Assembly (NCBI GenBank): GCA_023129115.1 | Contig: JAGMCR010000013.1 | Coordinates: forward strand, 1-64,000 | DNA length: 64,000 nt | Source of the DNA: Candidatus Iainarchaeum sp. | GTDB taxonomy: Archaea; B1Sed10-29; WALL01 | Direction: 5' to 3' | Part shown: positions 9,151 to 44,836 of the stretch, in pieces | Layout: each line of letters begins with the position of its first letter | Numbering within the stretch: the first letter of the stretch is position 1 | Notes under the pieces: generated by a model | What the model was told of the DNA's origin: nothing | What the model saw: the letters and a program-made list of their open reading frames with translations, nothing else | The model's database searches: none | Position numbers and translations under genes: made by a program

Positions 9151-9233
9151 GCTGGGGTCGCATAGCGGCTATTGCGGTGGCCTGCTAAGTCACTGTCCTT
9201 CGGGGCACGGGAGTTCGAGTCTCCCCCCCAGCG
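9151..9233 (+). tRNA. tRNA-Ser (GCT)
   Basis: Acceptor GCTGGGG/CCCCAGC, anticodon arm GTGGC-CTGCTAA-GTCAC, long variable arm, T arm GGGAG-TTCGAGT-CTCCC, G discriminator, no encoded CCA. Confidence 0.95.
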
Positions 9234-9334
9234 CTTCAGCCTTTTTCCGCTGGTAGCGGAAAAACCCTGGGGAATGTATTATTGCTCGCCATTGCGGGCG
9301 AGCATTTGCTCGCTTCGCTCGCAGTTTTTTTTGT

Positions 9335-9390
9335 CTCTGGGAGCCGATAGGCTCCCAAGCCTACCTCGCCAGCTCAGGTTTGGGCTGTTA
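9335..9390 (+). repeat. Hairpin repeat family B copy
   Basis: ACCTCGCCAGCTCAGGTTTGGGCTG identical to the minus strand of ~40451-40475. Confidence 0.7.
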
Positions 9391-9485
9391 GACGTCTCCC
9401 CCCCAGCGCCTCTATACTGTGCAGCGCCAGGCCGTATGGCTGTTGTTTCATTTCCTGAAAAACGATAAGTTTAAATATATGCAGT

Positions 9486-9502
9486 TACTGAATTATTCAG
9501 TA
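9486..9502. promoter_or_regulatory. Inverted-repeat operator upstream of the ATPase gene
   Basis: TACTGAAT-T-ATTCAGTA between TTTAAATATA and the AGGTGA RBS. Confidence 0.55.
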
Positions 9503-9513
9503 GGTGAATATAT

Positions 9514-10887
9514 ATGAAGTTTGTGAATCGCAAGCTTGAGCTTAAAGAGTTGGAAAAACTCCAGAAATTGTCTAAAAACAAGCTGTTTGTTGTTGCTCTT
9601 TATGGCATTCGCAGGGTTGGCAAGACGAGGCTCATCCTTGAATTCGCAAAAAACAATGGCATTTATTTCTTCGTGAACAAGAACAAGACTCCTCGTGATC
9701 TCCTCATGGAATATGAAAGTATTCTGAAAAGCAGGGGGGTGCTTGGGGAATTAGAGACGCTTGAGTCCTGGGACCAGTTTATAGACCTAATAATCAAAAG
9801 AACCAACCAACTAGTTATTTTCGACGAGTTCCAGAACTTTTATAATATAGAGCCGTCTTTTTTTGGAATGCTTCAAAAGGCAGTAGACTTGAATGAAAAT
9901 GAACCCGGGCTTATTGTAGTTCTTGGCTCTACTTTAGGGCTTATCAAGAAAACTTTTTCAGATTCCAAGGAACCACTTTACGGCAGGATAAAAAAATCAA
10001 TGCGGGTAACACCACTTACTTTGCCTTCATCACTAAAACTGTCGAAAGAATTGGGATTGTTGAAAGAGGATGCGGTGAAGTGCTATTGCTTGTTTGGCGG
10101 GTACCCAAAATACTATGTTTATATCGAGGACTATGATTTGAAGGGCAAGGCCATGGAAGAGATACTAAACACTCTCTTGTTTTCAAGGAATGCCCCTCTG
10201 GAAGATGAAGTCACCGTTATGCTTTCACAGGAGTTTGGGGGGCGGAGCGGCGTGTATTTCTCTATATTGGAAGCCATAGCAACTGGCGATAACACTATTT
10301 CCAAAATTGCTTCTTACTTGGGCATGCCAGCCACTTCACTCACACGGCAAATCAAGGAGTTGAAGGATTATTTTGAGTTCATTGAATATGAAAAGCCGTT
10401 TAGCGGGAAAAAAGGCGTTTACAGGATAAAGCACCCGCTGATGGCGTTCTGGTTTTCAAGCATATACAAAAACCTTTCTGCGTATCTTTCTAGAGACCAG
10501 AAATTCGTGAACAGTCTCAAGAACAACCTACCCAATTATTTCGGCAGGTCATTTGAAGCAGCTGCAACAAAGTTTATTGTTCCCAAGTTAGGGTTAACAG
10601 AGGCGAGACGGCAGTGGGGGAAAATGCCCGGAGCCAAGAAGGGAGAAAATACTTATGAGATTGACTTGATAGGGATGAAAGATAGTATCGCATATGCTTT
10701 TGAGTTCAAATGGAAAAAGCTCAATTTTGCTGAGGCCTCTTCTATACTAAATAACCTTAAAACAAAAACTAAGCTCGTTCAAAACCTGCCTCCTAATGTA
10801 AAACTGGGGTTAGTCGCTAAAAAAATCAATGGAAAAAGAAAACTACAACGCAAAGGCTTCTTGGTATATGACATAACTGACTTCTAG
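9514..10887 (+). CDS. Archaeal AAA ATPase (ATPase_2 + DUF234 type)
   Basis: KFVNRKLEL, YGIRRVGKT Walker A, IFDEFQ Walker B, GGYPKY, EIDL..FEFKW PD-(D/E)xK-like tail. Confidence 0.85.
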   Translation: MKFVNRKLELKELEKLQKLSKNKLFVVALYGIRRVGKTRLILEFAKNNGIYFFVNKNKTPRDLLMEYESILKSRGVLGELETLESWDQFIDLIIKRTNQLVIFDEFQNFYNIEPSFFGMLQKAVDLNENEPGLIVVLGSTLGLIKKTFSDSKEPLYGRIKKSMRVTPLTLPSSLKLSKELGLLKEDAVKCYCLFGGYPKYYVYIEDYDLKGKAMEEILNTLLFSRNAPLEDEVTVMLSQEFGGRSGVYFSILEAIATGDNTISKIASYLGMPATSLTRQIKELKDYFEFIEYEKPFSGKKGVYRIKHPLMAFWFSSIYKNLSAYLSRDQKFVNSLKNNLPNYFGRSFEAAATKFIVPKLGLTEARRQWGKMPGAKKGENTYEIDLIGMKDSIAYAFEFKWKKLNFAEASSILNNLKTKTKLVQNLPPNVKLGLVAKKINGKRKLQRKGFLVYDITDF

Positions 10888-11993: not shown

Positions 11994-12030
11994 GGCCCAA
12001 CAAAGAATCTCTTTACCCCCCCAGCGCTCA

Positions 12031-12084
12031 ACCCTTTTTCTGTTACTCGCTGCGCTCGCTCGGTGGAAAAGCGTTGATGGAAAA
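12031..12084 (+). repeat. Repeat family C copy
   Basis: ACCCTTTTTCTGTTAC...GTGGAAAAGCGTTGATGGAAAA matches the minus strand of ~44740-44810. Confidence 0.7.
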
Positions 12085-17643: not shown

Positions 17644-17644
17644 T

Positions 17645-20875: not shown

Positions 20876-22135
20876 ATGATTGGGAAATACGATATAACAA
20901 GCGTCCGCGCCCGGCAAATCTTCGACTCGCGGGGCAACCCAACCATTGAATGCGACGTATCGTGCGGCAAGGGCTTCGGCCGCGCCTCTGTGCCGTCCGG
21001 CGCAAGCACGGGCAAGCACGAGGCCCTGGAGCTCCGGGACAAGGGCAAGGCCTACCACGGCAAGGGCGTCCTGAAGGCAATCGACAACATTCACCAGCTC
21101 GTCGCCCCCAAACTCATCGCCAAGGACGTCCGCGACCAGGACGGCATCGACAAGCTCATGATTAACGTCGACGGCTCGGCCAACAAGCGCAATCTCGGCG
21201 CCAACGCCACGCTCGCCGTCTCAATCGCGTGCTGCAAGGCCGCCGCGTCCGCCAAGGAAGCCGCGGTGTACGAGCACATAGGGCAAATCTATACCCATTA
21301 CGAGCCCACGTACCACACTCCCGTCCCCTTCTTCAACATAATCAACGGCGGCAAGCACTCCAACAACAAGCTCGACGTCCAGGAGTTCATGATTGTGCCC
21401 AAGGCCAAGACCTTTGGCGAGGCCATGCGCATCGGCTCCGAGACCTACTACGAGCTAAAAAAACTCCTCGAGAAAAAGTTCGGCGTCGTCGGCGTCGGCG
21501 ACGAGGGCGGCTTCTCCCCGCCCCTCAAGAAAACCAGTGAAGCCATCGACTTCATCATGAAGGCCGCCAAGTCCGCGGGCCACTCCAAAAACGTTTCCAT
21601 CGCCCTGGACGTCGCCGCCTCGGAGTTCTACAAGTCCAAGAGGTACCGCATTGACGGCAAGCAGCTCCCCCCCACGAAGCTCATGGACTACTACGAAAAG
21701 CTCGTCGAAAGTTACCCAATCGTTTCAATCGAGGACCCGTTCCACGAGGACGACTTCAAGTCCTTCGCCGGCCTCACCGAGCGAATCGGGCAAGAAGTCC
21801 AAATCGTGGGCGACGACTTGTTCGTCACGAGCACGCAGCGCCTGAAGGAAGGCATCCGCATGTGCGCTGGCAACGCCATGATTCTCAAGGTCAACCAAAT
21901 CGGCACTTTGACCGAGGCATTCGAGGCCGCGGGCCTCGCGTTCCACTCCAGCTACCAAGTCATGGTCTCGCACCGCTCGGCGGACACCACGGACAGCTTC
22001 ATCGCCGACCTCGCGGTGGGCATCGAGGCCAAGCAAATCAAGTCCGGCGCCCCGTGCCGCGGGGAGCGCCTCGCGAAGTACAACCAGCTCCTCCGCATTG
22101 AGGAGCAGGGCGTGCCGTACGCCGAGTGGTTTTGA
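20876..22135 (+). CDS. eno: Enolase
   Basis: DSRGNPT, PSGASTG.HEA.ELRD, GDEGGF, IEDPF, VGDDL, KVNQIGT, ER.AKYNQLLRIEE. Confidence 0.97.
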   Translation: MIGKYDITSVRARQIFDSRGNPTIECDVSCGKGFGRASVPSGASTGKHEALELRDKGKAYHGKGVLKAIDNIHQLVAPKLIAKDVRDQDGIDKLMINVDGSANKRNLGANATLAVSIACCKAAASAKEAAVYEHIGQIYTHYEPTYHTPVPFFNIINGGKHSNNKLDVQEFMIVPKAKTFGEAMRIGSETYYELKKLLEKKFGVVGVGDEGGFSPPLKKTSEAIDFIMKAAKSAGHSKNVSIALDVAASEFYKSKRYRIDGKQLPPTKLMDYYEKLVESYPIVSIEDPFHEDDFKSFAGLTERIGQEVQIVGDDLFVTSTQRLKEGIRMCAGNAMILKVNQIGTLTEAFEAAGLAFHSSYQVMVSHRSADTTDSFIADLAVGIEAKQIKSGAPCRGERLAKYNQLLRIEEQGVPYAEWF

Positions 22136-22335
22136 GAAGCGAGTTTCTTGAGTAGTGACTCATTTTAGTAACGCGCTATTTCCCCCGCAGGGCTGTTTTC
22201 CTCTTCCCGGGCCCTGCGTTAAAATCACTGAGAACTAGTAGCATACTTCTTCAAGTACCACTCAGGTTTCCTAGGCCCAGCCGGGGGTAGTGCCCCTTGC
22301 CATAAACCGTCTTCTTCGGGGCTCTATCTACTCAC

Positions 22336-23304
22336 TCATTTCAGCCAATATCTTCTCAAGGCGCTTCCTAATTTTTGGATCAAGTTCCGCGGCTTTTCTG
22401 AACTCTTCTGTTGTTTCTTCATATAGCCTAGGTTGTGGTGTGCGAGTGCTCTGCCATAGTCTATTAATGTGTTGTTTGGGTCTATTTCCAGTGCTTTTTC
22501 GTAGTGGTGTAATGCTTTTTCGTAGTGGTGTAATGCTTTTTTGTGGCGGTGAAATGCTTCTTCATATTGTCCTAGGTAGTAGTGTACGAATGCTTTGTTG
22601 GTGTGTGCTTCTGCGTTGTTTGGGTTTATTTTCAGAGCTGATTCGTGTGCTCGAAGTGCCGGTTCATAAGCCCTTTTTTCACGTAGATTGACACCATGAC
22701 TAGTCCACATTAGCGAAGCAAATTCTGTTTCAGATTGTTCTTCTCCTTTGTGTTTAGTTTTGGTTAAGCCTAGGGCTGGATCGAGTTGTATGCCTTCAGC
22801 AGTAATATAACAATGCCCCACATCTGATGCTTCCACACGCTCTTTTTTTTGTTTTGTTAGTTGTATTAAATCCTTGTTTTCACCCTTGACTCTGAAGTAT
22901 TTTGTTTTGACCCCGCTTTTTTTCAGCATTTGTGCGAGTACTGCAGGTAATGCCACGCAATCTGCTACTTCTCCTAGTCGAAAACGAGGGATAGTTTTGA
23001 CTGTGGGTTCATCAAGCTTACTTCCAAATTTGCTTAATTTTTCAAAAAAAGCATCAAATCTCAACTCTTCATTTCGTTCGTGCACCCATTCACTCAGTTT
23101 AATGGCAAGTTTTTTCTTTGATAATTTCTTGTTTCGTTTTATCCAGTCACCGGGTTGTTCCAACTTTTTTGGTGGCCGTGTTTTGAACAAATCAGGCGTG
23201 GCTTTAATGAATTCGTTCAATAACTTGTTAACAGAAGCAGGGGCAAAGGTTCGCTTAACCAGTTCTTTTTTGGTTAATCCTTTTGGTGGCTTTTTCTTGG
23301 GCAT
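22336..23304 (-). CDS. Transglutaminase-like (Cys-His-Asp) + TPR protein
   Basis: DCVAL..GHCY..LDPA putative triad; ALKINPNNAEAHTNKA TPRs; AT-rich. Confidence 0.7.
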   Translation of the reverse strand: MPKKKPPKGLTKKELVKRTFAPASVNKLLNEFIKATPDLFKTRPPKKLEQPGDWIKRNKKLSKKKLAIKLSEWVHERNEELRFDAFFEKLSKFGSKLDEPTVKTIPRFRLGEVADCVALPAVLAQMLKKSGVKTKYFRVKGENKDLIQLTKQKKERVEASDVGHCYITAEGIQLDPALGLTKTKHKGEEQSETEFASLMWTSHGVNLREKRAYEPALRAHESALKINPNNAEAHTNKAFVHYYLGQYEEAFHRHKKALHHYEKALHHYEKALEIDPNNTLIDYGRALAHHNLGYMKKQQKSSEKPRNLIQKLGSALRRYWLK

Positions 23305-23369
23305 CTAAAATAATTATTGTTTTTGAGACTTTTTAAACACACAGTTTGTTACGGGGTTTTTTGGCCAGA

Positions 23370-23456
23370 GCCCCCTGCCGCGGCGAGCGCCTCGCCAAGT
23401 ACAACCAGCTCCTCCGCATCGAGGAGCAGGGCGTGCCGTACGCCGAGTGGTTTTAG
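23370..23456 (+). repeat. 87-bp duplicate of the enolase 3' end (22049-22135)
   Basis: Encodes the same APCRGERLAKYNQLLRIEEQGVPYAEWF*; 5 silent differences. Confidence 0.92.
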
Positions 23457-23591
23457 GACCGCTGAAAACCAAGGCGCCACGGCTTAGGCGGGGGCCCTGC
23501 GTAATACTCGTTTTGTGGTGGGTACCCACCACCCTTTTTATATTAGTATATACTTAATGTATATACAACACGTATCAACACTGGTGAACCA

Positions 23592-23858
23592 ATGATTAAG
23601 TACCACGGCAAATGGTTGGTAATAAAGCGGCATCCAGCAAATGAAATGAACAAGCTGGGGCTTGACCCAGAAGACATTGTTAAGTTCCTTGAGAAAGGAA
23701 GGCAATTCGAACACAGAGAAAAAGGCAAGGTGGAGAAGTGGTGTCCACGGGGCGATAAGATATACAATGTCGTGATAGCCGAGTATCAAGATACTCTGGT
23801 ACTAATTCACGTCGGAAGGTTCAAGAAAACAAAAAAACACATGGCAAGATTGAGGTGA
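23592..23858 (+). CDS. Putative RNase-type toxin (DUF4258/BrnT-like) of a TA pair
   Basis: Small basic protein (H..E..LG...DIV..LE.G..YNVVI..LIHV) upstream of a Zn-ribbon/AbrB gene. Confidence 0.55.
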   Translation: MIKYHGKWLVIKRHPANEMNKLGLDPEDIVKFLEKGRQFEHREKGKVEKWCPRGDKIYNVVIAEYQDTLVLIHVGRFKKTKKHMARLR

Positions 23859-23862
23859 ATTC

Positions 23863-32868: not shown

Positions 32869-32959
32869 CTGACACCCTCACCTACTATTGTAAACGCTCT
32901 GCTATAAAAAATTTACATCCAGCGCAATGCTTAAAAGCCCCGCACCCGTCTTTAGGGGC

Positions 32960-34621
32960 ATGGACTTCGCCGCCGTGGCAGAAACCCTTTCCACTCTCGA
33001 AGAGACGCCGTCCCGCCTCGAAATGACCGAGATAGTGGCGTCCCTCCTCAAAAGCAGTGGCAGGGACCTCCGCACAGTAGTCCTCTTCATCCGGGGCCGC
33101 GTCTTCCCGCCGTGGGACCCCCGCGAAATTGGCGTCGCCCAAAAGTCCATGATAAAGTGCGTCTCCACAGCCACCGGCACCCCAGCAAAAAAAGTCGAGG
33201 AAACAATCGCGGCGCTCGGCGACACCGGCCTCGCCGCCGAAGCACTCTTCACGAAAAAGCCGCAGACCACGCTCACCAAGAAAAAAATGTCCCTCGCCGA
33301 AATACATTCCTCGCTCGAAAAAATGGCTTCGTGGGAGGGCAAGGGCACCCAGGAAAAAAAGGGCAGGCACGTCATCGAGCTCCTCAACTCCGTTTCCCCG
33401 AACGAAGTAAAGTACCTTGTCCGCCTCGTGCTCGGCGAAATGCGCGTCGGCGTCGGCGAAGGAATCATGCGCGACGCCATTGCCAAGGCGTTCGGCGTCC
33501 CTGCCGCAGAAGCAGAGCGCGCGTTTTCACTAATCAACGACTACTCCGAGGTCGCCGAAATCGCGCGCACCAAGGGCGAGGCCGGGCTAAAGAAAATCGG
33601 CATTTTATTGTTCCGCCCGCTGCGGCCAATGCTCGCACAAACAGTGCACTCTGTCCAGGAGGCATTGGACAACGGTTGCAGGGCTTGGGAATATAAATAC
33701 GATGGAATGAGAATACAGGCCCACATCAAAAACGGCGAGGTCCGCGTCTTCACGCGCCGCCTCGACGACGTCACCCACCAGTTCCCGGACGTCGCCGAAG
33801 CCATCAAAAACACCGTAACCGCCAAGGAGGCAATCATCGAGGGCGAGACAGTCGCCGTCGACGAGTCCGAGCGCCCGCGCCCGTTCCAGTTCCTGTCGCG
33901 CCGCATCAAGCGCAAGTACAAAATCGACGAAATGGTGCGCGACATTCCCGTCATTACCTACTTGTTCGACTGCATGTACCTCGACGGCAAGAACCTCACC
34001 ACCCAAAAAATGAAGGGGCGCCGCGCGGCGCTCAACAAAATTGTCACAGAAGGCAACCACGTGAAGTTCTCGAGGACGCTCATCACAAACTCTGCCGACA
34101 AGGCCGAGTCCTTCTACAAAGAATCACTAAAACTCGGCCACGAGGGGGTGATGGCCAAGAACCTGGGCGCCGCGTACAAGCCGGGCTCGCGGGTCGGGTA
34201 CATGTACAAATTAAAGCCCGTCACCGAGACCCTTGACTTGGTCATCGTGGCTGCGGAGTGGGGCGAGGGGCGGAGAGCCAACTGGCTCGGCTCTTACCTC
34301 CTGGCCTGCCGCGACCCGGACACGAACGAGTTCCTCTCGATTGGCCGAATGGCGACTGGAGCCAAGGACGAGCAGCTCCAGTACCTCACTGACACGCTAA
34401 AGCCCACAATCGAGTTCCAGAAGGGCAAGTTCGTCAAGCTGAGGCCCACTCTCGTCGTCGAGGCCGGCTACCAGGAAATCCAGAAGTCGCCCACGTACGA
34501 GAGCGGCTACGCGCTGCGCTTCCCCCGCTTAATCACAATCCGCGAGGACCGCGCCCCCGAGGAATGCGACTCGCTGGACCGGGTTGCGTCTTTGCACGAG
34601 CGGTTCACTGCGAAGAAATAG
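32960..34621 (+). CDS. lig: ATP-dependent DNA ligase
   Basis: PMLAQ, EYKYDGMRIQAH, EGE, FDCMY, EGVMAK, LRFPR. Confidence 0.96.
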   Translation: MDFAAVAETLSTLEETPSRLEMTEIVASLLKSSGRDLRTVVLFIRGRVFPPWDPREIGVAQKSMIKCVSTATGTPAKKVEETIAALGDTGLAAEALFTKKPQTTLTKKKMSLAEIHSSLEKMASWEGKGTQEKKGRHVIELLNSVSPNEVKYLVRLVLGEMRVGVGEGIMRDAIAKAFGVPAAEAERAFSLINDYSEVAEIARTKGEAGLKKIGILLFRPLRPMLAQTVHSVQEALDNGCRAWEYKYDGMRIQAHIKNGEVRVFTRRLDDVTHQFPDVAEAIKNTVTAKEAIIEGETVAVDESERPRPFQFLSRRIKRKYKIDEMVRDIPVITYLFDCMYLDGKNLTTQKMKGRRAALNKIVTEGNHVKFSRTLITNSADKAESFYKESLKLGHEGVMAKNLGAAYKPGSRVGYMYKLKPVTETLDLVIVAAEWGEGRRANWLGSYLLACRDPDTNEFLSIGRMATGAKDEQLQYLTDTLKPTIEFQKGKFVKLRPTLVVEAGYQEIQKSPTYESGYALRFPRLITIREDRAPEECDSLDRVASLHERFTAKK

Positions 34622-34954
34622 CTATGCCGTAATGGGGATGGGTATCGAGTCCTGGAGCGGTTCTTTGTAAATGGACAACAGCTTGAAGCCCACGACCAGG
34701 TTGTCCCCTTTTATGTTGTACTTTAGCTCTGCCGCTTTTATTCCTTCCAATGCTTTTTCTGTTTGTGCGGTTGTCAAGTCTACCCCAATCACTTCAGAAG
34801 CGTCAAATATTTCCAGCCCACTCACTCTGTCTTTGTCGTCCATATCCACGACGAATATATCATCGGCCGAAACCAAGGAGTACTGTGATTTTCTCCCCTT
34901 CACGTTTAGCAGTAGTATGTCTTCGTCCTTGTTGTATACCCATTCCGCTTTCAT
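34622..34954 (-). CDS. DUF2283-family protein (putative antitoxin)
   Basis: Y..DEDIL..VVDMD..RVSGLEIFDAS; ATGA coupling to the upstream gene. Confidence 0.75.
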   Translation of the reverse strand: MKAEWVYNKDEDILLLNVKGRKSQYSLVSADDIFVVDMDDKDRVSGLEIFDASEVIGVDLTTAQTEKALEGIKAAELKYNIKGDNLVVGFKLLSIYKEPLQDSIPIPITA

Positions 34955-35310
34955 TTCTTCTTCGCCTCCGGTATCCGCCTTTTGTTGAACCGTGACTTCC
35001 GCTTCTTCTTCCGCAACCAATTATACGAGATGACTATTAAATGGTTATCCCTGAATCTCACAACCACTCTTAAATCGTAAGTCCTGCTGCCATGGAACAC
35101 AAGTAGCGTTCGTCCTTTTCTGGCTTTCTCCGCTTTTTTTAGCCCAGTGAGCCGGTTCTCAAAAAAGTCCAAAACTTTTTCCTTGGGTGGCCGCCCCTGC
35201 CTTTCCTCGATTTCGGTGACGTGTGGGGTGAACACTATAACGGATTGGCGTATCCTCTCCCGTGTTTCCTTGATGTCAAGGGGCTCTTTTTTCAGGGCAT
35301 CAATTCTCAT
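34951..35310 (-). CDS. DUF4258-like putative RNase toxin
   Basis: IVFTPHV..R..LRVVV..IVIS; paired with DUF2283. Confidence 0.55.
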   Translation of the reverse strand: MRIDALKKEPLDIKETRERIRQSVIVFTPHVTEIEERQGRPPKEKVLDFFENRLTGLKKAEKARKGRTLLVFHGSRTYDLRVVVRFRDNHLIVISYNWLRKKKRKSRFNKRRIPEAKKK

Positions 35311-35330
35311 CCCACTCTTTAGTATGTCCG

Positions 35331-35373
35331 CTCAGTATAAAAACCGCTTCTGCTACGGCCTGCCGAGAAAAAA
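35331..35373. repeat. 43-bp imperfect direct repeat (terminator + TATA segment), second copy at 38342-38384
   Basis: CTCRGTATAAAAA.CG......CTACGGCYTGCCGAGAAAAAA. Confidence 0.75.
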
Positions 35374-35388
35374 GAGTTGGGTGGGCCA

Positions 35389-35493
35389 CGCTTCCCCCGC
35401 TTAATCACAATCCGCGAGGACCGCGCGCCCGAGGAGTGCGACTCGCTGGACCGGGTTGCCGCTCTGCACGAGCGGTTCACCGCGAAGAAGTAG
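35389..35493 (+). repeat. 105-bp duplicate of the ligase 3' end (34517-34621)
   Basis: Encodes RFPRLITIREDRAPEECDSLDRVA(S/A)LHERFTAKK*; 6 silent and 1 missense difference. Confidence 0.92.
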
Positions 35494-36316
35494 GTGTTCT
35501 TGTCACTTCTTTCATCATGAAGGCGTCTATCGGGGCGTCGTGCGCGTAGTAGTCCCGCATTTCCCTCAGCTCTTTGTCCCTGATGTGGGGGTGCTTTGCC
35601 AGGTAATTGAAGAAGGTCAGGTACTCGTTTTCCGGGGTCACGTGCTTTATCCTGTTCCTGAACATTATGGTTAGGGCGTCCTGGAGAGCGTGTGCCGTTG
35701 GGTTTTTGGTCGCGAACTTAATCGCTGATTCTTTGTCCAGTATCCGTGTTTTCGTTTCTTTGGAGGCGGTTTTGACTTCTACTTTCAGTGATTTTTCTTC
35801 CATTTTCTGGTAATCCGAGTTAGGCACTACGTTGATGTAGAAGTCAAGCTTCCTGGCCTTCAATAGGCGAAAAGTAACCCGCTTGGCTTTCAGCTTTTTC
35901 TCAATCTTTTTGATGTTGTCTTCGACAGTCACGAGCTCCACGTTTTTGCCCATGCGGTACTCTGCATAGACAATGGTTGTTATAGGCCTGTTGACCAGGG
36001 CCAGGCCTTTTATTTCGTCCAATAGCTCAATCATGGCATTTGCTATTTCCGGCAGCTCCGCGCGTTCCAATGGCTTCCTGCCCGCTTTCTCTTTTTTGCG
36101 GATAACTGCTATTTGCCTATCCGTTAGTGCTTTCCTGGCTTCTTTGGTTATCTCGGTGTTTGGTGTCACAACAACGGTTTTCAATCTCTTAAACCGCTCA
36201 AGTTTTTTGGTTGCCCCGATGCCCACGTAATTGTTAAATTTGACACTAGTGATATTGTTAGGGAGTCCTACCAGGTCGTCACTGTTTCGTATGTAGTCCA
36301 TGCCAAGCCTCATCAA
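35477..36316 (-). CDS. Hypothetical protein
   Basis: 279-aa basic ORF with accessory-type composition. Confidence 0.65.
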   Translation of the reverse strand: MMRLGMDYIRNSDDLVGLPNNITSVKFNNYVGIGATKKLERFKRLKTVVVTPNTEITKEARKALTDRQIAVIRKKEKAGRKPLERAELPEIANAMIELLDEIKGLALVNRPITTIVYAEYRMGKNVELVTVEDNIKKIEKKLKAKRVTFRLLKARKLDFYINVVPNSDYQKMEEKSLKVEVKTASKETKTRILDKESAIKFATKNPTAHALQDALTIMFRNRIKHVTPENEYLTFFNYLAKHPHIRDKELREMRDYYAHDAPIDAFMMKEVTRTPTSSR

Positions 36317-36454
36317 TCATGATGTATCACTATGCTCACTAGTATCACGATAGTCACTATTATGCAAATTTGCATATTTATGTATTTTTATAGAAATCCA
36401 ATTTTATTTGGGTTAGGCACTATATTTTTATAGTTGGGTGCCAGGAGTACACCC

Positions 36455-37390
36455 ATGGCCTACACACGCAAAAAGACGATCAAGGGCCACGAATACGCTT
36501 ACATGGTCAAGAGCGTGAGGACCCCCAAAGGGCCGAGGCAGAAGGTAGTGGAGTACTTGGGCGCTGCCCAGAGCGGCGTGCTCGGGGCGGGTCGCCTGGG
36601 CGGGGTGAGGTTTGGCACTGGTTTTTCTGTGCCGGCTGATGAGGTCAGGGCGTTGGCCAGGGAGCAGGGTGCGTCCCTTGGGATGGCTGAAAAGGACTTC
36701 ATGCTATCTGTTTTCTTGAAGTACTTGTACCTCGTTCCTGGCTCTGAAGTGCTGGTCTTCAAGGGCGGCACTGCCCTGTCAAAGGTTTACGTCAAGGGCT
36801 ACCGATTGAGCGAGGACTTGGACTTCACTGCCATGATAAAGGACAAGAAAGCCGTCAGGGAACTCCTCCGCAGGGCCGCACGCGAGCTGGGGTTTGTCAT
36901 CAAGCGCGAGAACATGACCTCGCGGAGTTACACGATACGCTTGGGTTTTGTGGGCATGCTGATGACGCCGAACAGCATCCACATTGACGTTGACTTCACG
37001 CGCACGCCAGTGCTGAAGCCCAAGCACGTAAAAAAGAAGCTGCCGTACAAGGGGCTTGGGTATGCCACGATGGTTGTGTACGACCTGCGCGAGTTGTTTG
37101 CCGAAAAGGTTATGGCCTTATCGCATCGTAAGAAGCCAAGGGACTTCTACGATATTTGGTACCTGTTCAAACACAAGCGCTTCAACCGCTCCGAGATAGC
37201 CAAAATCGTCAAGGCGAAGGGCCGAGAGTTTCCGCCCGGGCTTGATGTGCCAGGCATTTTCTCGGGGACTGACGCGGCCAGGCGGCAGTGGAAGAACAGG
37301 CTCGTGGAACTCATGCACGATGTGCCGGACTTTGACGTGGTCTTGGCAGAGCTGCGGCCCAAGCTAGAAGCCCTCGAGAAAGCCAAATAA
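36455..37390 (+). CDS. abiEii: AbiEii-family nucleotidyltransferase, second copy
   Basis: AEKDF, VFKGGTAL, RLSEDLDF, EKV.AL.HR..PRDFYD; ATG at 36455. Confidence 0.85.
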   Translation: MAYTRKKTIKGHEYAYMVKSVRTPKGPRQKVVEYLGAAQSGVLGAGRLGGVRFGTGFSVPADEVRALAREQGASLGMAEKDFMLSVFLKYLYLVPGSEVLVFKGGTALSKVYVKGYRLSEDLDFTAMIKDKKAVRELLRRAARELGFVIKRENMTSRSYTIRLGFVGMLMTPNSIHIDVDFTRTPVLKPKHVKKKLPYKGLGYATMVVYDLRELFAEKVMALSHRKKPRDFYDIWYLFKHKRFNRSEIAKIVKAKGREFPPGLDVPGIFSGTDAARRQWKNRLVELMHDVPDFDVVLAELRPKLEALEKAK

Positions 37391-38185
37391 CTGCTTGTCC
37401 TCGATGTTCTTGATTACCTTCCACTTCTTGTCTATGCCCCCCCTTCTTTCGGCAAAGGTGGAGAGGGGGACAGCTGTTGTGTCACGCTTTATGGCTTCGT
37501 GGAGGGGCTTCGTGGGCCTGACCCCCAGCTTGTCCATTACGTAGCCCAGGCGCTTTACCAGTGTCTTGTTGCGCATTTTGAGCGCGTATTCACAGAGCTT
37601 CTTGGCGTTGATTTCGCGCCTGGCGAAGTAGAGGGCCTTGGCGCACTCGGCGACGCCCAGGGAGTACTGTGGCTTGTCAAAGCAGTCCACAACAGTTTTT
37701 TCTTTCGACGCCATGTTGATGGCCGGGCCGCCCTTGAGCTCTACCTCTTCCCAACCAAAAAACTTGTGCTTGGACAGCGTGACGAACTTGTAGTCCACTC
37801 CATGGAACCGTGTTATGTCCTTTTTTTGTTTAGTGGTTGCTACGTAAACCGAAATAGGTATTTGCTCGGTGAATCCCCAGAAGTTCATGGCGCTCACATA
37901 GGACACGTAGTAAGGTGAGACCAAGTTAGGCACTATGAGCCACTGGTGCTCCCACCAACCTTCTTCACCCGCCTTTGTGGGTATGAGCACGTACTTGTCC
38001 CGTTCTAGCCTATCGAACCACCCCCCCTTTGTGAGGCGGTGCATCAAGTCCCTTGCCACGCGCTTCTTGCCACCCACTATTTTTCGCACGTCAGCCATGC
38101 TAACGACTGCCTTGCCCTCACGCTCTAGGCGCGACACTAGCCTAAAGCCCTTTTTGCCCAATGTCTTGCCTTTATTTTTTCTCAT
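37364..38185 (-). CDS. abiEi: AbiEi-family antitoxin, second copy
   Basis: Paralog of 1233-2039; IR ATAATCGC/GCGATTAT at 38187-38209 next to the start. Confidence 0.85.
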   Translation of the reverse strand: MRKNKGKTLGKKGFRLVSRLEREGKAVVSMADVRKIVGGKKRVARDLMHRLTKGGWFDRLERDKYVLIPTKAGEEGWWEHQWLIVPNLVSPYYVSYVSAMNFWGFTEQIPISVYVATTKQKKDITRFHGVDYKFVTLSKHKFFGWEEVELKGGPAINMASKEKTVVDCFDKPQYSLGVAECAKALYFARREINAKKLCEYALKMRNKTLVKRLGYVMDKLGVRPTKPLHEAIKRDTTAVPLSTFAERRGGIDKKWKVIKNIEDKQLFGFLEGF

Positions 38186-38398
38186 TATAATCGCCTATTA
38201 CGCGATTATCTATATAACAAAACAAGTATAAATACCTTGCTGTGGCACAGCCTAAAAGTAGCCCACACCCAAAAAAAGTGTTGACGCAGGGTTGGTGGGG
38301 GGCTATCCCATCAGTTAGGCACTACATTTTATTGGAATGCCCTCGGTATAAAAAGCGTCCACTCTACGGCTTGCCGAGAAAAAAATAATTAGCCTGGG

Positions 38399-40294: not shown

Positions 40295-40402
40295 AGTGGG
40301 GGACGAACAAAACGCAGTTGGTTACTCGGCCCCTATGGCAAGCAAACTGGACTAGGGGGATGCCAATTGGCACCCCCCTTAGGCCGGCTCGAGTCCCCCA
40401 CT
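40295..40402. repeat. MITE-like unit with 10-bp terminal IRs containing a family A palindrome
   Basis: AGTGGGGGAC (40295-40304) / GTCCCCCACT (40393-40402); internal GGGGGATGCCAATTGGCACCCCC-CTTAGGCCG. Confidence 0.6.
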
Positions 40403-40440
40403 CAGTAGAGCATGAACTCAATCAAGTTCTTCACGAACAC
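40402..40440 (-). repeat. 39-bp duplicate of the 3' end of CDS 40517-42511
   Basis: Encodes the same VFVKNLIEFMLY*; 5 silent differences. Confidence 0.88.
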
Positions 40441-40516
40441 AGCTTAAACTCAGCCCAAACCTGAGCTGGCGAGGTGGACTAAGGCGGCATCAGCAGATGC
40501 CGCGAATAGGCCTGCC
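40441..40516 (-). repeat. Hairpin repeat family B copy between the duplicated gene ends
   Basis: GCGGCATC-TGCT-GATGCCGC hairpin then ACCTCGCCAGCTCAGGTTTGGGCTGAGTTTAAGCT. Confidence 0.7.
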
Positions 40517-42511
40517 TCAATACAGCATAAATTCAATCAGGTTCTTCACGAACACTTCGTCTGTCTCTGGCGGGAACGCGTAATAGACGACCACGCCCCT
40601 GCCGAAGATGTGGCTCGCGAACTTCGGGTCCTTCACCGTAATCCCCGGCCACGTGTTCGCGTTCCGGTACGCCGGCGTCACGTGCAGCTGCACCACCTCG
40701 TGCGAGTTGACGTCGTTCGTCTCCACCAGCACGAACGGGACAGGCAAGTCATTTTTCTTCAAGTCCTTCGCGCGCGTCACCCCTTGCACCAATGGGTGCT
40801 TGACGTCCGCTACCTGCATCACCGCCAGTGCCTCGCTCTCCGTCGCCGGGTCGAGCCGCACTTCCTGCGCAGCCTCAATCGCCGCTGCCGCCGAGTTCAT
40901 TCCCTCGGCAAACCCATCGCCGCACTTGAGCGACATGTCCCTGAGCCCGCGCGCAAGCGCCGCCCATTCGCTGCCCTGCGCAGTGCGGATGAAGTCCACC
41001 GCACCGTTCTCGTCCACAAGCGGCGACGAATAAGCAATCAGCGTGTTCAATTCCTCGATGTGCCCGGTCTCCGCCGAAATGGCCTCGGCCACGTTCCCGA
41101 CCTCATCCTCCTCGCACGAATTGTACTCGTTAGCGTCACTCCGCAGCTTTGCCGCAGCGGCCTCGATGTCGGAGACCCTCGACCCCAGCAGCGAAATGTG
41201 GGAGTCATAGTTCGACTTCACGACCGCGTCTTCTTCACTCGCCCTCAGCGACTCAAGCGACGACTTCGCGCCCGCGACTTTCGTGGCAATGCCCTCAATC
41301 GCGGTTATCTCCATGCTTGTGGGCACGCCATCAGGGATAACAACGGCCTCAATATCGTCGATGTACCCCTCCATCTTCGTTGCGGCAGAACTCACCGCGC
41401 TGGACGACTCGCCCCTCGCGTCCTTCTGCTGCGCCAGCGACTTCAGCGTCGTCACCACGCCGCCCAAATCAGTCTTGGCGCCGCTCTTCTCGTTCTCCAG
41501 GCCCGCGAGGCCCGCGTTAACGGCGGCAAGCGCCGCCGTGGGGCTGCACCCGCCCTCGCCGCCGAGCGCGTTGTGGCACACGACAAACCCTGCGTGCGCG
41601 CTCGCCAGGCCTTCCATGACAGTGTCAATCCCCGCGTAGTACCTGTCGAACTCTGCCACGGCATAATCGTCCGCCACGAAGCCGACGCCGAGCACGCTCT
41701 TGCCGAAGTCAATCCCGCCCTCGGTGCCCTCGGCAGTGATTTTTTCGTACTCGCCCCTTGCCCACGGGTTCGCCGTGGTCCTGAAGCCTTGCTCGTTGTC
41801 CCACCTGAAGTAAATGTCCTGGTAGCTCCCGCCCTCGCACGGGTAGCCCTTTGTGCCGCTCACGCCAAGCGTCCCGTCGAACGCGTCCGCGCAGATGCCC
41901 TCGATGTGCTCGAGCGCGCCGGCGATTAGCGCTTCCTTTTTGATTGCGAACGCCTCGCTCGCCATGGCGTCGGACGGCGTGCTTACCTCGCTTTCCTTGA
42001 CGCAGATTTCTTCTTCGTATTCCTGGATGCGCTTGCCGCCCTCGTCGCGCCACTCGGCGGTGTACTCCATGGTCCTGCACGTTTGGTCGCTCGACGAGCC
42101 GATTGTCCCGGCGTCTCCGACCCAGACCAGTCTCCCCATGTCCTCGAACAAGTAGTTGTAGAACACCTTGAGCTTTTCCGTCGGTATTTCGCGCGCGTGC
42201 TCAACGATAATCAGTGAATAGTCCTGGATATTGCCCTTGGACACTTGGTCGACGCGCAGCTTCTGCACGGGCAGCTGGTACTGCGTCTCAATCATTCGTG
42301 CGAGCGTGTCGGGCGAGCCCATTCCCTCGTCGCCCCTGATAATCAGTATGGTCGGCTTCCCGAGCACGGAATAATAAATGTCGCAGTATCCCTGGCCGAG
42401 CGACGAGCAACCCACGAGCCCGGTCTTGGTCGCGACAATAAGCAGCGCGAAGACCAGCACTCCAATAGCAATCAAGTGGGGCAGGTTCTTCTGCAGGTCT
42501 TGGGACGCCAT
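40517..42511 (-). CDS. Membrane-anchored protein, GATase1-like domain interrupted by a long helical insert
   Basis: N-terminal TM, YSLIIVE..GRLVWVGDAG, Ala/Ser-rich helical middle, GRGVVVYYAFPP. Confidence 0.7.
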   Translation of the reverse strand: MASQDLQKNLPHLIAIGVLVFALLIVATKTGLVGCSSLGQGYCDIYYSVLGKPTILIIRGDEGMGSPDTLARMIETQYQLPVQKLRVDQVSKGNIQDYSLIIVEHAREIPTEKLKVFYNYLFEDMGRLVWVGDAGTIGSSSDQTCRTMEYTAEWRDEGGKRIQEYEEEICVKESEVSTPSDAMASEAFAIKKEALIAGALEHIEGICADAFDGTLGVSGTKGYPCEGGSYQDIYFRWDNEQGFRTTANPWARGEYEKITAEGTEGGIDFGKSVLGVGFVADDYAVAEFDRYYAGIDTVMEGLASAHAGFVVCHNALGGEGGCSPTAALAAVNAGLAGLENEKSGAKTDLGGVVTTLKSLAQQKDARGESSSAVSSAATKMEGYIDDIEAVVIPDGVPTSMEITAIEGIATKVAGAKSSLESLRASEEDAVVKSNYDSHISLLGSRVSDIEAAAAKLRSDANEYNSCEEDEVGNVAEAISAETGHIEELNTLIAYSSPLVDENGAVDFIRTAQGSEWAALARGLRDMSLKCGDGFAEGMNSAAAAIEAAQEVRLDPATESEALAVMQVADVKHPLVQGVTRAKDLKKNDLPVPFVLVETNDVNSHEVVQLHVTPAYRNANTWPGITVKDPKFASHIFGRGVVVYYAFPPETDEVFVKNLIEFMLY

Positions 42512-42536
42512 AGCAAAAGATTAGGGCGGCGAGTAT

Positions 42537-42644
42537 TTATATGTTTATCACGGTGCCCAGCCAGCCAAAAAGCCCAAGCCCAATAACCACTGCCATGCCG
42601 ATAAACATTCCAGTAGCCATCAAAAGCTGCCTTCCACATCTCAT
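42537..42644 (-). CDS. Putative 35-aa single-TM peptide (not in ORF track)
   Basis: MRCGRQLLMATGMFIGMAVVIGLGLFGWLGTVINI*. Confidence 0.4.
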   Translation of the reverse strand: MRCGRQLLMATGMFIGMAVVIGLGLFGWLGTVINI

Positions 42645-42682
42645 GCCAAAAGAAACAGCGCCCCGGCTTTTAATGCTTTTCC

Positions 42683-43450
42683 TCAAAGCGTGAACTTCGT
42701 GAGGATGTGCTTTTCCTTGGCCTGGACCACTGCCTCTACCTCAATGTATTTCCCCAATCCGGACAATGCAATCCTCGGCCGCAGCAATTGGTCGAGCTGG
42801 AACACGCCCGCCGAGTTGTTCATCTTCACCAGAATCTTGACCGGCTTCTTCGTGCCCTTTTTTATACTAACATCATCAATGGCCTGCGCCGATACAGCAT
42901 GAATGTCTTTCTTCCCCATGTCAAACGGAATCCGGCTCCGCCCCTTGCTCATGTCCGTCGCGTCCGCGACGCGCACGACCCCAGCCTCGACGGTGAACGG
43001 CGCCAATTCCTTGCTGTAATGCGGCAGCGCGTGCAGTATCTCGGACTGCATCACGACCTGCTCCTCGACAGAATAGCCGCCCAGTAATTCCGGCAATAGC
43101 TGCGGCGCCAGAATGATGCTGAACAATTCGTGGTTGTGCCGGTGCACGGTCATCCCGATGTCGTGCAGCGAGGCCGCCAAAACAACAACGACTTCTGCGT
43201 CATCAACCGTCATCTTATGGTTCTTCACAATACTCGGCTTCACGCCCCCTGCGACGAGCAGGCGCAGCATCTGCAGCGCGGCGTTCGCCACAATCTGTAT
43301 GTGCACGGGCCCGTGGTCGTTGTAGCCAAGCCGGTCAATCGAGTTGACGTTCGAGCACTTCCACATCGCGGCGAGCCGCTTGCTCGCGCGGACTTTCTTG
43401 ACCACCGACCCCAGTTTTTTGTTCCCCTTCACGGGAATGTTGAACCTCAT
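42683..43450 (-). CDS. HD-domain phosphohydrolase
   Basis: NDHGPVH, LHDIG, HR..HE, VAD..DM..GRSR; ATGA coupling at 43450. Confidence 0.85.
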   Translation of the reverse strand: MRFNIPVKGNKKLGSVVKKVRASKRLAAMWKCSNVNSIDRLGYNDHGPVHIQIVANAALQMLRLLVAGGVKPSIVKNHKMTVDDAEVVVVLAASLHDIGMTVHRHNHELFSIILAPQLLPELLGGYSVEEQVVMQSEILHALPHYSKELAPFTVEAGVVRVADATDMSKGRSRIPFDMGKKDIHAVSAQAIDDVSIKKGTKKPVKILVKMNNSAGVFQLDQLLRPRIALSGLGKYIEVEAVVQAKEKHILTKFTL

Positions 43451-44730
43451 TTCTTCAGCCTCTTCATCAGCCCAAGCTTGGCACTGGGGTCGAACCCGCT
43501 CCGCAGCTTTTTCTTCTGCCACTGCTGCGCCAGCAGGACCACGGTGTGCGGCTCAATGCTCTCCCGCAGCACGATGCCCGGCCCGATGAACGAGTACTCC
43601 CCAATCTTTATCCCGGGATAAATGCTGCTGTTGATTCCGGTCTTGCAGTTCGCGCCCACGATGCACCCGAACTTGTTCGCCCCGGTGCCGACCTTCTCGC
43701 CGCCGACCTCCATGTACACCTCTTTCTCGTCGAACCGGAAGTTCGCCGTGACACACCCCGAGCCGAACATCGAGTTGTCCATCACGACAGAGTCGCCCAC
43801 GTAATTGTTGTGGAACCAAACGTTGCAGCCCACGTAGCTCCGCGCGAGCTCGGTCGAAAAGCCGACCACGCTGTTGTCGTCGACGTGGCTCTCGCGCACC
43901 AATGCGTTGTTCGCGACGACCGCGTCCCTCCCGATGTACGAGTCAACAATGACCGCGTTCTCGAACACGCTCGCGCCGTCCTCAATAACCGTGTTGCCTT
44001 TTATCACCGCGCTGGCCGCGATGCTCGCCTTCTTCGAGACGCGCGGCTCCATCTTCGACAGGAAGTGCCTGCTCACCCCGAGGATGTGGAACGGGTACTT
44101 GATTGCGCCCCAGTACCCGGTGTACGGCACAGCAACCACTTCTTTTTCGCCGCACATCTTCGTGAGCGCGACTTCGTACACGTCGTCCCTGCTGCTCGAC
44201 GCGAACTCCAGGCACTCCACCAGGCCCTCGCCGCTCTTGTACTTGTGGAACACGACGTTCACTAGGTCGCTTGGCTCGTTGCCCTCGCCCGGCTTCTCCA
44301 TTATCCCCGTTACCCTGCTTCCATCGGTCACGAGGTAGCCGCCAGGGAAATACTTGGTCACCTTCACAGCCAGAATTGCCGCGTCCCCCTTGGCCTTCTT
44401 GATGGACTCGTAGGCGCTTTCCTCGAACACGTCGTTCGCGCCGATGATTACGACTTCTCCCCTCAGGAACTTTTTCGCGGACAATACTGCGTCCGCCATT
44501 CCCCTAGGCTCTTCCTGGATTGCGTACTCTGCCCTGTCCCCCACCACTTTTTTGATGTCCTCAATATTGAGGGGCGAGCATATGAGCACTGGCTTGCCCT
44601 CGGCGTATTTTTCGGCGAGCTCGAGCTGGCGCAGCACAAGCTCCTTGCCGCAGAACCTAAGCAGGCCCTTGTCCTTGGTAATCGGCATCATTCTCTTGCC
44701 GATTCCGCCGCACAGGAATATTGCTCTCAT
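43447..44730 (-). CDS. Sugar-phosphate nucleotidyltransferase with left-handed beta-helix (GlmU-like)
   Basis: LCGGIGKRM.P....K, QEEPRGMADA, EKP, hexapeptide repeats, YVGDSV. Confidence 0.88.
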   Translation of the reverse strand: MRAIFLCGGIGKRMMPITKDKGLLRFCGKELVLRQLELAEKYAEGKPVLICSPLNIEDIKKVVGDRAEYAIQEEPRGMADAVLSAKKFLRGEVVIIGANDVFEESAYESIKKAKGDAAILAVKVTKYFPGGYLVTDGSRVTGIMEKPGEGNEPSDLVNVVFHKYKSGEGLVECLEFASSSRDDVYEVALTKMCGEKEVVAVPYTGYWGAIKYPFHILGVSRHFLSKMEPRVSKKASIAASAVIKGNTVIEDGASVFENAVIVDSYIGRDAVVANNALVRESHVDDNSVVGFSTELARSYVGCNVWFHNNYVGDSVVMDNSMFGSGCVTANFRFDEKEVYMEVGGEKVGTGANKFGCIVGANCKTGINSSIYPGIKIGEYSFIGPGIVLRESIEPHTVVLLAQQWQKKKLRSGFDPSAKLGLMKRLKK

Positions 44731-44739
44731 TCAATCACC

Positions 44740-44836
44740 TTTTCCATCGACGCTTTTCCACTGTTCAGGGGTTGAGCAGGCAAGCGAAACCCCTGTAACA
44801 GAAAAAGGGTCGCCGCACAGGAATATTGCTCTCATT
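44740..44836 (-). repeat. Repeat family C copy plus 26-bp duplicate of the gene 5' end
   Basis: CGCCGCACAGGAATATTGCTCTCATT at 44706-44731 and 44811-44836. Confidence 0.8.

Follow-up and report, generated by a model that had tools for sequence, protein, structure and literature searches.

Displaced copies of gene ends around integrase-less cassettes and hairpin elements in an archaeal genome

The elements e14 and phage 21, both found at the icd gene of E. coli, bring their own replacement for the end of the gene which they enter, and at e14/icd the two versions of this end differ mainly at silent positions. Here we describe gene ends repeated in a similar manner in a 64,000-nucleotide stretch of DNA from Candidatus Iainarchaeum sp. 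(positions 1 to 64,000 of contig JAGMCR010000013.1, assembly GCA_023129115.1), referred to below as the window: behind the enolase gene (eno), the ATP-dependent DNA ligase gene (lig) and a further protein gene (40517-42511) the last codons of the gene occur a second time, and between the two copies lies a small gene cassette or a hairpin-bearing insert. With its 64 kb the window forms the beginning of contig C5 (90.7 kb) in a 1.25-Mb archaeal genome (G000), which is a metagenome bin of 19 contigs and 88.6% complete. Its closest relative in the genome collection is a single-cell genome, and the next nearest are Diapherotrites and Altiarchaeota bins, which points to a DPANN-type host.

In Thaumarchaeota, 14 of 68 integrated elements are reported to lie in the 3'-distal parts of protein genes, where they introduce a new stop codon, with attachment (att) sites mostly shorter than 25 bp (PMC6563490). 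A second described group consists of insertions with long target duplications: direct repeats of more than 30 bp, variable in length and sequence, which often span a stop or start codon, with the result that the target gene survives, and surround DNA without a mobility gene, and for which a cycle of invasion, amplification via the repeats and release was proposed (Furuta, Abe and Kobayashi 2010, PMC2853133). By the authors' account their screen left no archaeal case; the cases were all bacterial, carried restriction-modification genes as cargo and had near-identical repeats, e.g. 44/46 and 417/423; IS1630 of Mycoplasma, with variable duplications of 19-26 bp, is also mentioned there (PMC2853133). 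The archaeal integrase Int-pTN3 is reported to recombine any identical segments from about 104 bp, with an outcome equal to that of homologous recombination (PMC8371274), and for the pneumococcus a transformation-driven duplication by pairing with two sister chromatids has been described (PMC3784515). Our literature search, with subscription journals outside its scope, found no description of allelic gene-end copies around integrase-less cassettes in archaea.

Repeated gene ends and the cassettes between them

Genes were called by a simple longest-ORF (open reading frame) rule and named via Pfam, NCBIfam and PADLOC, and tRNA genes were identified with ARAGORN. The comparison base is the single genome G000, in which the pattern occurs, and two same-genus relatives; one of these, G002, served as sister genome for synteny, and its contig syntenic to C5 measures 122.7 kb. 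A first-pass annotation, made from the letters of the window, had listed five loci with duplicated gene termini of 11-105 bp. All five duplications are present, with lengths of 16-105 nt, although the copy at one of them, a nucleotidyltransferase gene, is of the 5' start and not of a terminus.

The eno gene (20876..22135, plus strand; Pfam Enolase_N and Enolase_C) closes with the proximal, functional end copy (22044-22135, stop codon TGA; repeat family D10). Its last 85-90 nt (22044/22049-22133) are repeated at 23365/23370-23454 with 93-95% identity, and the displaced end (23365..23456, plus strand) holds 28 codons with an identical peptide, four silent differences and the stop codon TAG; both this repeat and that of lig terminate at the stop codon. 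Between the copies is the eno cassette (22136..23364, minus strand) of 1229 nt, which has a low G+C content (0.45 vs 0.585 in its neighbours) and a sole gene (22336-23304), convergent to eno, for a TPR protein of 322 residues (Pfam TPR). The displaced end is followed by an older part of the island (23457..26882, plus strand) with an 88-residue ORF, an AbrB/MazE-like ORF, a Fic protein (SoFic/PDC-S04) and a phosphoglycerate mutase of the iPGM type (Pfam, PADLOC), whose far border shows no repeat in the border test (scores within the control range). In G002 the archaeal-type phosphoglycerate mutase gene (aPGM) follows eno after 64 nt and the eno cassette is absent, and the matching gap in G000 measures 4765 nt. 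In other members of the family eno adjoins aPGM or iPGM, and one of them carries a different 1.25-kb insert without an end copy.

Two cofactor-independent phosphoglycerate mutases are adjacent at 25363-28121 of the window, the iPGM type being followed by the archaeal aPGM type. The iPGM gene is part of the inserted island; it is not beside eno in two same-genus relatives, and eno is directly followed by iPGM in two other genera.

The lig gene (32927..34621, plus strand; Pfam DNA_ligase_A N, M and C domains) has its proximal end copy at 34517-34621, with the stop codon TAG (repeat family D8), and these last 105 nt are repeated at 35389-35493 with 93% identity. The displaced end (35389..35493, plus strand) comprises 34 codons with six silent differences and one replacement, carries the stop codon TAG as well, and has 17 nt in common with the 3' end of the convergent gene 35477-36316. 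The lig cassette (34622..35388, minus strand) of 767 nt is composed of two small genes convergent to lig: one for a DUF2283 protein (34622-35020, minus strand; Pfam DUF2283) and an ORF of 119 residues (34951-35310, minus strand), which are probably a toxin-antitoxin-like pair. The older part of this island (35494..38376) contains a 279-residue ORF (minus strand), an AbiEii toxin (36434-37390, plus strand) and an AbiEi antitoxin (37364-38185, minus strand), named by Pfam and PADLOC, and again its far border is without a repeat in the border test. In G002 the convergent neighbour follows lig after 16 nt and the lig cassette is absent; the matching gap in G000 is of 3754 nt. The two lig ends are alike at 98/105 positions, and compared to the sister genome the proximal copy matches at 90/105 and the displaced copy at 89/105. 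As the two copies are nearer to each other than either is to the sister genome, the donor of the lig end appears to be a close relative.

The right ends of both parts of the lig island (35342-35385 and 38352-38395) share a 42-nt module with a TATA-like box and a conserved 19-mer. Its reading as a cassette end was rejected, since the 19-mer core recurs at three other sites of the genome (on contigs C12, C13 and C14), and the module is probably a common promoter or terminator motif. The window contains two paralogous AbiEii/AbiEi pairs, at 359-2051 and 36434-38185, parts of whose DNA are 74-83% alike (repeat families D2 and D15).

The third protein gene (40517-42511; end region 40401..40555, minus strand) shows the same arrangement on a smaller scale. 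Its last 40 nt recur 115 nt downstream with 87.5% identity, as 12 codons with an identical peptide and five silent differences, and the proximal copy (40516-40555) and the displaced copy (40401-40440) enclose an insert of 75 nt (40441-40515) with a hairpin and the motif of a repeat family, Y, described below.

The first-pass annotation had also proposed a scan of the genome for gene-end copies. Whole-genome self-comparison gives 11 displaced end copies at nine protein genes, which are, beyond eno, lig and the 40517 gene of the window, those for PCNA, a PD-(D/E)XK nuclease, an MscS channel, Hef, a TIM-barrel AP-endonuclease-like protein and the thermosome. PCNA and the nuclease have three end copies each and are followed by stacked cassettes; in the PCNA stack a cassette with a 467-residue ORF, ParE and a partner precedes a cassette with MNT and HEPN. 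The inserts range from 75 nt to 2.1 kb and lie directly behind the stop codon, and the displaced copies correspond to the last 8-35 codons. Among the tRNA genes, eight of 38 have an exact copy of their own last 14 nt nearby, and six of these copies are 64-230 nt away, around gene-less hairpin inserts.

Direct repeats of at least 25 nt, at least 80% identity and a distance of 100-15,000 nt number seven on C5 (90.7 kb) vs none on the 122.7-kb contig of the sister genome. At loci of other genomes, a lig-end repeat is found once in 39, weakly (37 nt, 81%), and an eno-end repeat once in 61, as an inverted hairpin. Two genes of the window have internal coding tandem repeats, at 45879-46219 (a 99-nt cysteine-rich unit of DUF4215 type) and at 61116-63314 (units of about 261 nt in the long ORF C5 61072-64926).

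Small insertions, in both directions, separate G000 and the sister genome every few kb along 90 kb, and the outer borders of ten insertions in G000 and ten in G002 gave no repeat above the control range. G002 has one eno end and one lig end, but the G000 islands exceed the bracketed cassettes: the displaced copy lies within the island, the bracketing is limited to the gene-proximal cassette and no repeats mark the outer borders. We read these islands as a recent cassette placed before older accessory DNA whose own scars, if there were any, are gone. Between two genes that have a 0-nt gap in the sister genome, a gene for a 330-residue S-adenosylmethionine-dependent methyltransferase (29766-30758, minus strand; PADLOC mad2-like) is inserted exactly, without a flanking repeat.

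The expectation that toxin and defence genes gather behind core genes was borne out, as the inserts are rich in toxin-antitoxin and defence-candidate genes. The bracketed cargo includes the TPR protein at eno, the DUF2283 pair at lig, an AAA_14/DUF4143 ATPase of the PADLOC family PDC-S01 at MscS and unknown proteins elsewhere; the older parts of islands hold two Fic proteins (SoFic/PDC-S04), AbiEi/AbiEii, a PDC-S27 ATPase and the extra phosphoglycerate mutase. Homologues of the TPR protein were found in G004 and G007 (34-40% identity) and in G012 (26%), and among the matches listed none is beside eno. The DUF2283 protein has, over 40 relatives, only a paralogue within G000 itself and a broken copy in G020. 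Three scans of viral contigs with the TPR protein, the ORF of the PCNA cassette and the integrase described below yielded no relative save one weak match of 50 residues, and a metagenome search for close relatives by enolase gave only distant matches of at most 65%.

Allelic ends, recombinases and the route of entry

For the analysis of codons the 11 pairs of ends were pooled, giving 193 codons, with PCNA copy 2 in frame for its last eight codons only. The copies differ by 44.2 synonymous and 13.8 non-synonymous changes (pS 0.335, pN 0.031, pN/pS 0.09). Neutrality, under which 23% of the differences should be silent, is rejected (binomial p = 1.6e-17), and so is a model in which the copies begin identical and the unused one then drifts, under which 37% should be silent (p = 2.1e-9). 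The pairs of the window show 15 silent differences and one replacement (eno 4/0, lig 6/1, 40517 gene 5/0), and the youngest, least-diverged pairs (nuclease copy 2, Hef and thermosome) show five silent differences and no replacement. The most-diverged pairs (MscS and nuclease copy 3) have replacements too, as expected if the displaced copy decays once it has been displaced.

With divergence so overwhelmingly silent, the ends come from different lineages and not from a target duplication that drifted afterwards: the two copies are alleles, each with a history as coding sequence in a lineage of its own, and these lineages are closely related; one of the alleles was, as it seems, brought in by the incoming DNA. 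This agrees with the first-pass annotation, which had taken silent-only divergence as a sign of donor alleles from relatives. The stop codons also differ, with TGA at the proximal and TAG at the displaced copy in five pairs and the reverse in none; in a sixth pair, that of the AP-endonuclease-like gene, the displaced copy has no stop at this codon (AAA, then TGA). The direction from TGA to TAG is a hint, given by only five, partly dependent cases. Comparison with G002 and G001 was indecisive as to which copy is native: against relatives the 40517 gene matches at 30/40 positions in its proximal and 33/40 in its displaced copy, the eno sites are mixed and the lig copies are near-equal.

These loci may well be the product of a Campbell-type insertion, guided by homology and run by host recombination, of DNA bearing its own replacement gene end, an explanation which we prefer with somewhat less than even confidence. 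The incoming DNA would carry its own copy of the gene end and undergo a single crossover with the chromosomal end, via a circular molecule of tail plus cargo or an equivalent, after which the functional end and its stop codon would be those of the newcomer and the old end would be pushed downstream. Homology would serve as the address, and the catalyst would most likely be the host machinery (RadA) and not a site-specific integrase. Recombination between the two copies would pop the cassette out as a circle with one copy of the end, and this circle could enter the same gene in a relative. In a compact genome selection would keep only the events that leave the gene whole, and hence the ends would be used; addictive toxin-antitoxin and defence genes would persist as cargo, and the stacks of three copies would be the result of repeated single crossovers. 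The founding capture of a gene end would need an illegitimate event, to which homology-facilitated illegitimate joining may apply.

Among the 12 gene ends compared, no 7-mer or 8-mer is common to three or more, and sharing is below that of random gene ends, as the first-pass annotation had noticed in stating that the anchors have no sequence in common; the ends of the cassettes examined (eno and lig) show neither a shared motif nor arm-like sequence. A Pfam scan of the 48 ORFs of the window found no recombinase, and searches of the genome, at 88.6% completeness, found no serine recombinase, Y1 transposase, Cas1, reverse transcriptase or rve integrase, no integrase of the SSV or pTN3 type, and only a sub-threshold fragment of a DDE transposase. 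The description of the loci as integrase-free thus holds for the window but not for the genome, in which the proposed search for HUH, reverse transcriptase and recombinase genes turned up one tyrosine recombinase (a single PF00589 match, on contig C12). Four TnpB-like (Cas12f1-like_TNB) genes are present (C13:134192-134389; C3:79611-79808, 10561-10764 and 102282-102485), and the assembly contains neither a Y1 nor a serine transposase.

The tyrosine recombinase is XerA-like, although below the cut-off of that family (131 bits vs 220), and it is the only protein hit by integron-integrase models (37-47 bits vs cut-offs of 265-435). In another genus the protein is 84-85% identical, against just 61% for the enolase, and searches of G002 did not find it; the recombinase is therefore mobile. 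Its gene (C12:78360-79529) follows the third core copy in an array at tRNA-Thr(CGT) (C12:74872-99214), which extends over 24 kb and includes seven copies of the 3' core of the gene (its own and six further ones) with conserved P and P' arms at the junctions. Most segments of the array are without an integrase, and other segments carry isochorismatase, subtilase and carotenoid-type genes and an AAA_14 ATPase. The P and P' arms are confined to this array, plus one on C13, and are absent from the cassettes of the window. The array is in this respect an internal control: a working integrase leaves conserved arms, and the cassettes at protein genes have none. At six loci with integrase homologues in five relatives, flanking repeats were in no case informative, the contig of G005 ending 1.3 kb after the gene.

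As there is no shared core, no arm and no recombinase with the cassettes, and RadA is present (C13:39080-39799), host homologous recombination is favoured, and we infer it to be the catalyst. A homologue of DprA is encoded as well (C12:19794-20687; DNA_processg_A, E = 4.5e-61), which with RadA could serve a recombination linked to DNA uptake.

The same observations have to be weighed for decayed integrative elements of the classical type, each of which would have entered by its own tyrosine integrase and an attP site mimicking the gene end, as e14 does at icd, and would later have lost the integrase and left addictive cargo between attL and attR. The architecture is indeed that of integrase-made junctions; the tRNA-Thr array, with its seven core copies and one integrase, demonstrates that integrase-less segments between att copies do arise; a remnant of an integrase N-terminus (21 residues) is found at C12:101464; and tRNA 3' ends, of which eight in 38 genes have a copy nearby, are the classical integrase target. 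The thaumarchaeal elements (14 of 68) reported from the 3'-distal part of protein genes, bringing a new stop, fit the same scheme (PMC6563490). At least nine protein-gene ends would however require as many specificities, and only one family of recombinase gene and remnant is found in the 1.25 Mb; the cassettes of eno (1229 nt) and lig (767 nt) are full of intact cargo genes, with no pseudogene debris; and they have no conserved arms, in distinction to the true array. We consider this explanation unlikely, though worth keeping in view.

Several points weigh against the Campbell-type insertion itself. No circular or excised form was seen in the Logan contigs, which cannot detect circles as the shared stretches (35 and 38 nt) are longer than the word length of the graph, which we take to be 31. 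Some repeats are poor substrates for homologous recombination, being short (34-47 nt) or only 82% alike (MscS), unless they diverged afterwards. A recombinase may have remained unassembled in a genome that is 88.6% complete, and the absence of an integrase inside a cassette is weak evidence because most segments of the true tRNA-Thr array lack one too. Nor does the proposal dispense with illegitimate joining altogether, which is needed once, when a gene end is first captured. Neither an allele nor a genome of the donor was found, and the cargo of eno and lig is without a close homologue in 40 relatives. The limits of the homology zones were chosen by eye, so that a slight bias of the codon counts is possible.

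Two candidates for free forms were set aside. A contig of 296 nt in sequencing run X3 joins 35388 back to 34517, as a circle or tandem junction would; it was not counted, since the 38 shared bases leave no unique word at the assumed word length and its cover is about 3-fold. Contig C11 (1665 nt) was rejected as a free cassette, for it has no repeat or circular overlap.

Hairpin elements and the remaining explanations

It is less easy to assign the smallest inserts to one process. Three families of gene-less miniature repeats are present in the genome, X with 23 copies, Y with 11 and Z with about ten, and Y and Z also occur in G002. Compared to shuffled sequences the X element folds well (z = -3.3), as does, as DNA, the two-hairpin unit with the Y motif at tRNA-Ser (z = -3.45); the Y insert of the 40517 gene is not clearly better than the shuffles (z = -1.8). 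Around seven of the 23 X copies, flanking repeats exceed the 99th percentile of the control, and four of these repeats (15-26 nt) abut the element. For five to seven of the 11 Y copies a repeat of 12-49 nt is found, with its second copy 0-10 nt after the motif, a count which is descriptive only, since repeats nearby contaminated the control. Where this repeat is the 3' end of a gene (three cases, by our own gene calls), the Y motif has the orientation of the gene.

The gene for tRNA-Ser(GCT) (9151..9234, plus strand; ARAGORN) has its last 16 nt (9219-9234) repeated exactly 160 nt downstream (9394..9409, plus strand). The insert (9235..9393, plus strand) is of 159 nt, gene-less and made of hairpin repeats, and its two-hairpin Y motif (9364-9387) lies 6 nt before the displaced end. 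Pattern search found these two exact copies, and two matches were obtained in none of 100 shuffles. The sister genome has tRNA-Ser(GCT) at the syntenic place with a single copy of the 3' end.

At the nucleotidyltransferase gene (43447-44730; start region 44706..44836, minus strand), two exact 26-nt copies, at 44706-44731 and, upstream, at 44811-44836, surround a 79-nt hairpin element of the X family (44732-44810). The repeat is the gene start, ATG and eight codons, and this duplication around a miniature element is a sub-class of its own. The upstream copy of the start opens a frame of 34 codons (44728-44835, minus strand) which runs through the X hairpin and ends with TGA directly before the true ATG; to judge from this layout, it may pass ribosomes on to the real start.

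Another X element (12028..12084, minus strand) is paired in inverted orientation (inverted repeat I1) with a copy at 15953-16009. This second copy is inserted between the two por subunit genes, where the gap is of 81 nt vs 15 nt in the sister genome. The pair brackets 3.9 kb with a Fic gene, an HGSNAT-type acyltransferase gene and the first por subunit gene. A terminator-like palindrome of the Z family (40347..40388, no strand assigned; repeat family D16) stands just beyond the displaced copy of the 40517 gene.

The flanks of the small inserts are thus either perfect, at tRNA-Ser and the nucleotidyltransferase, or allelic, at the 40517 gene and the thermosome. The hairpin inserts may stem from a second process, a target duplication at insertion, or may be scars of cassettes which have lost their cargo.

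It is here that the long variable target duplication studied by the Kobayashi group is strongest. A widely staggered break, or an event between sister chromosomes, would take up foreign DNA, repair would copy the stretch between the cuts, and only those events spanning a stop or start codon would be kept. Repeat lengths of 12-105 nt with no fixed size, perfect copies at some miniature elements (26 nt at the nucleotidyltransferase start and 16 nt at tRNA-Ser), the flanking repeats of seven of 23 X elements and five to seven of 11 Y elements (descriptive for Y) and the presence of a DprA homologue are all in line with this mechanism, and the integrase-less insertions with repeats spanning start or stop codons reported by Furuta et al. 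were mostly from naturally competent species (PMC2853133). At the protein-gene ends, an identical start with drift at all codon positions is rejected by the 44 silent vs 14 replacement differences (p = 2e-9); the five silent out of five differences of the 40517 gene would have a chance of about 0.003, as estimated by hand from site counts; and each TGA-to-TAG difference between stop codons needs two changes. As a general explanation it is improbable to about the same degree as the decayed elements.

By homology-facilitated illegitimate recombination, linear DNA of a relative would pair with the gene through homology on one side, and on the far side would be joined upstream of the resident end, either at a hairpin or without homology. 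This would place a donor allele at the functional end and the resident allele behind the cargo, would need no recombinase, and could be the founding link between cargo and gene end; DprA and RadA are present. Such events are reported to delete DNA of the recipient rather than duplicate it, and the three-copy stacks are more simply obtained by repeated single crossovers. The first-pass annotation had put forward such hairpin-directed or illegitimate joining of the far end as a hypothesis; the far joints of the eno and lig cassettes show neither a hairpin family nor a shared motif, and we regard it as a distinctly poor candidate.

An artefact in which the assembler strung together sequence from two strains that live side by side and differ in the DNA following eno, lig and other genes would suit a metagenome bin whose sister, a single-cell genome, has no such repeat in 122.7 kb, and Logan contigs break at every repeat, leaving the order without independent confirmation; yet it is highly improbable, as the shared parts should have about twice the depth if two strains were mixed whereas depth is equal, almost no variant letters occur over 20 kb, the identical stretches of at most 38 nt are judged to be below the usual final assembly words, perfect duplications of 16-26 nt are impossible from strain differences and the same pattern recurs at nine protein and eight tRNA genes. 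Depth was taken from the Logan contigs of the run that probably gave rise to the bin and is flat (eno body 17.2, eno cassette 16.3, next 11 kb 18.3, lig cassette 20.3, flank 17.6), which makes a chimeric assembly unlikely; both cassettes are separate Logan contigs. Runs X2 and X3 contain the same strain at low depth, otherwise without variant forms.

Implications and comparison with known systems

DPANN genomes are tiny and tightly packed, and how they gain genes is poorly understood; here one genome of 1.25 Mb shows the pattern at no fewer than nine protein genes and eight tRNA genes. It is conceivable, if rather doubtful, that cassettes tagged by the last 8-35 codons of a gene enter, leave and swap among related archaea by host homologous recombination alone, independently of any recombinase of their own, and that the ends of core genes (eno, lig, PCNA, Hef, thermosome, tRNAs) act as a distributed, integron-like platform on which toxin-antitoxin and defence genes gather with the host gene never broken. 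If homology to a gene end suffices to place and remove cassettes, defence and toxin-antitoxin genes would have a simple way, with no enzyme of their own, to move in compact genomes, and the idea of long target duplications would extend to archaea and to cargo other than restriction-modification genes. An intergenic copy of a gene end with silent differences would then be a marker of recent gene gain for annotators, and integrase-less islands need not be decayed prophages.

The integrative elements with replacement ends, such as e14 at icd, are alike in that the gene is kept whole by an end and stop codon borne on the element, the old end is displaced and tandem stacking occurs. Direct repeats of the 3' end with the gene intact are found here too, but those elements have an integrase and defined att sites, whereas the present inserts of 75 nt-2.1 kb have no integrase inside, no recombinase, no conserved att core or arms, and occupy at least nine unrelated protein genes. 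The tyrosine-integrase array at tRNA-Thr likewise has the 3' end of its target at every junction, grows by tandem accretion and consists mostly of integrase-less segments; it differs from the protein-gene cassettes, however, in having an integrase, of XerA-like type, as well as conserved P and P' arms, both of which they lack. An enzyme like Int-pTN3 would explain the many unrelated targets, but most of the present repeats fall below 104 nt and differ between their copies.

Features of integron cassettes were not found, as no protein scores at the level of IntI and neither a hairpin nor a motif is common to the cassette ends at eno and lig; no structure-based search for attC sites was made. 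Miniature inverted-repeat transposable elements (MITEs) and repetitive extragenic palindromic (REP) elements resemble X, Y and Z, which are likewise short, hairpin-forming and gene-less, some of them flanked by duplications of 12-49 nt. The duplication of fixed short length expected of a transposon or MITE is not seen, the flanks of X, Y and Z being variable in length and some of them diverged alleles, and no matching transposase was found.

With the insertions described by Nobusato and Furuta of the Kobayashi group, eno and lig share repeats of more than 30 bp around an insert of less than 20 kb without a mobility gene. An origin of both copies from the resident target fits only the perfect repeats at tRNA-Ser and at the nucleotidyltransferase start. 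In distinction to those insertions, the host is here an archaeon, the cargo is made up of toxin-antitoxin, defence-candidate or unknown genes or of bare hairpins, and the repeats are alleles diverged at silent sites.

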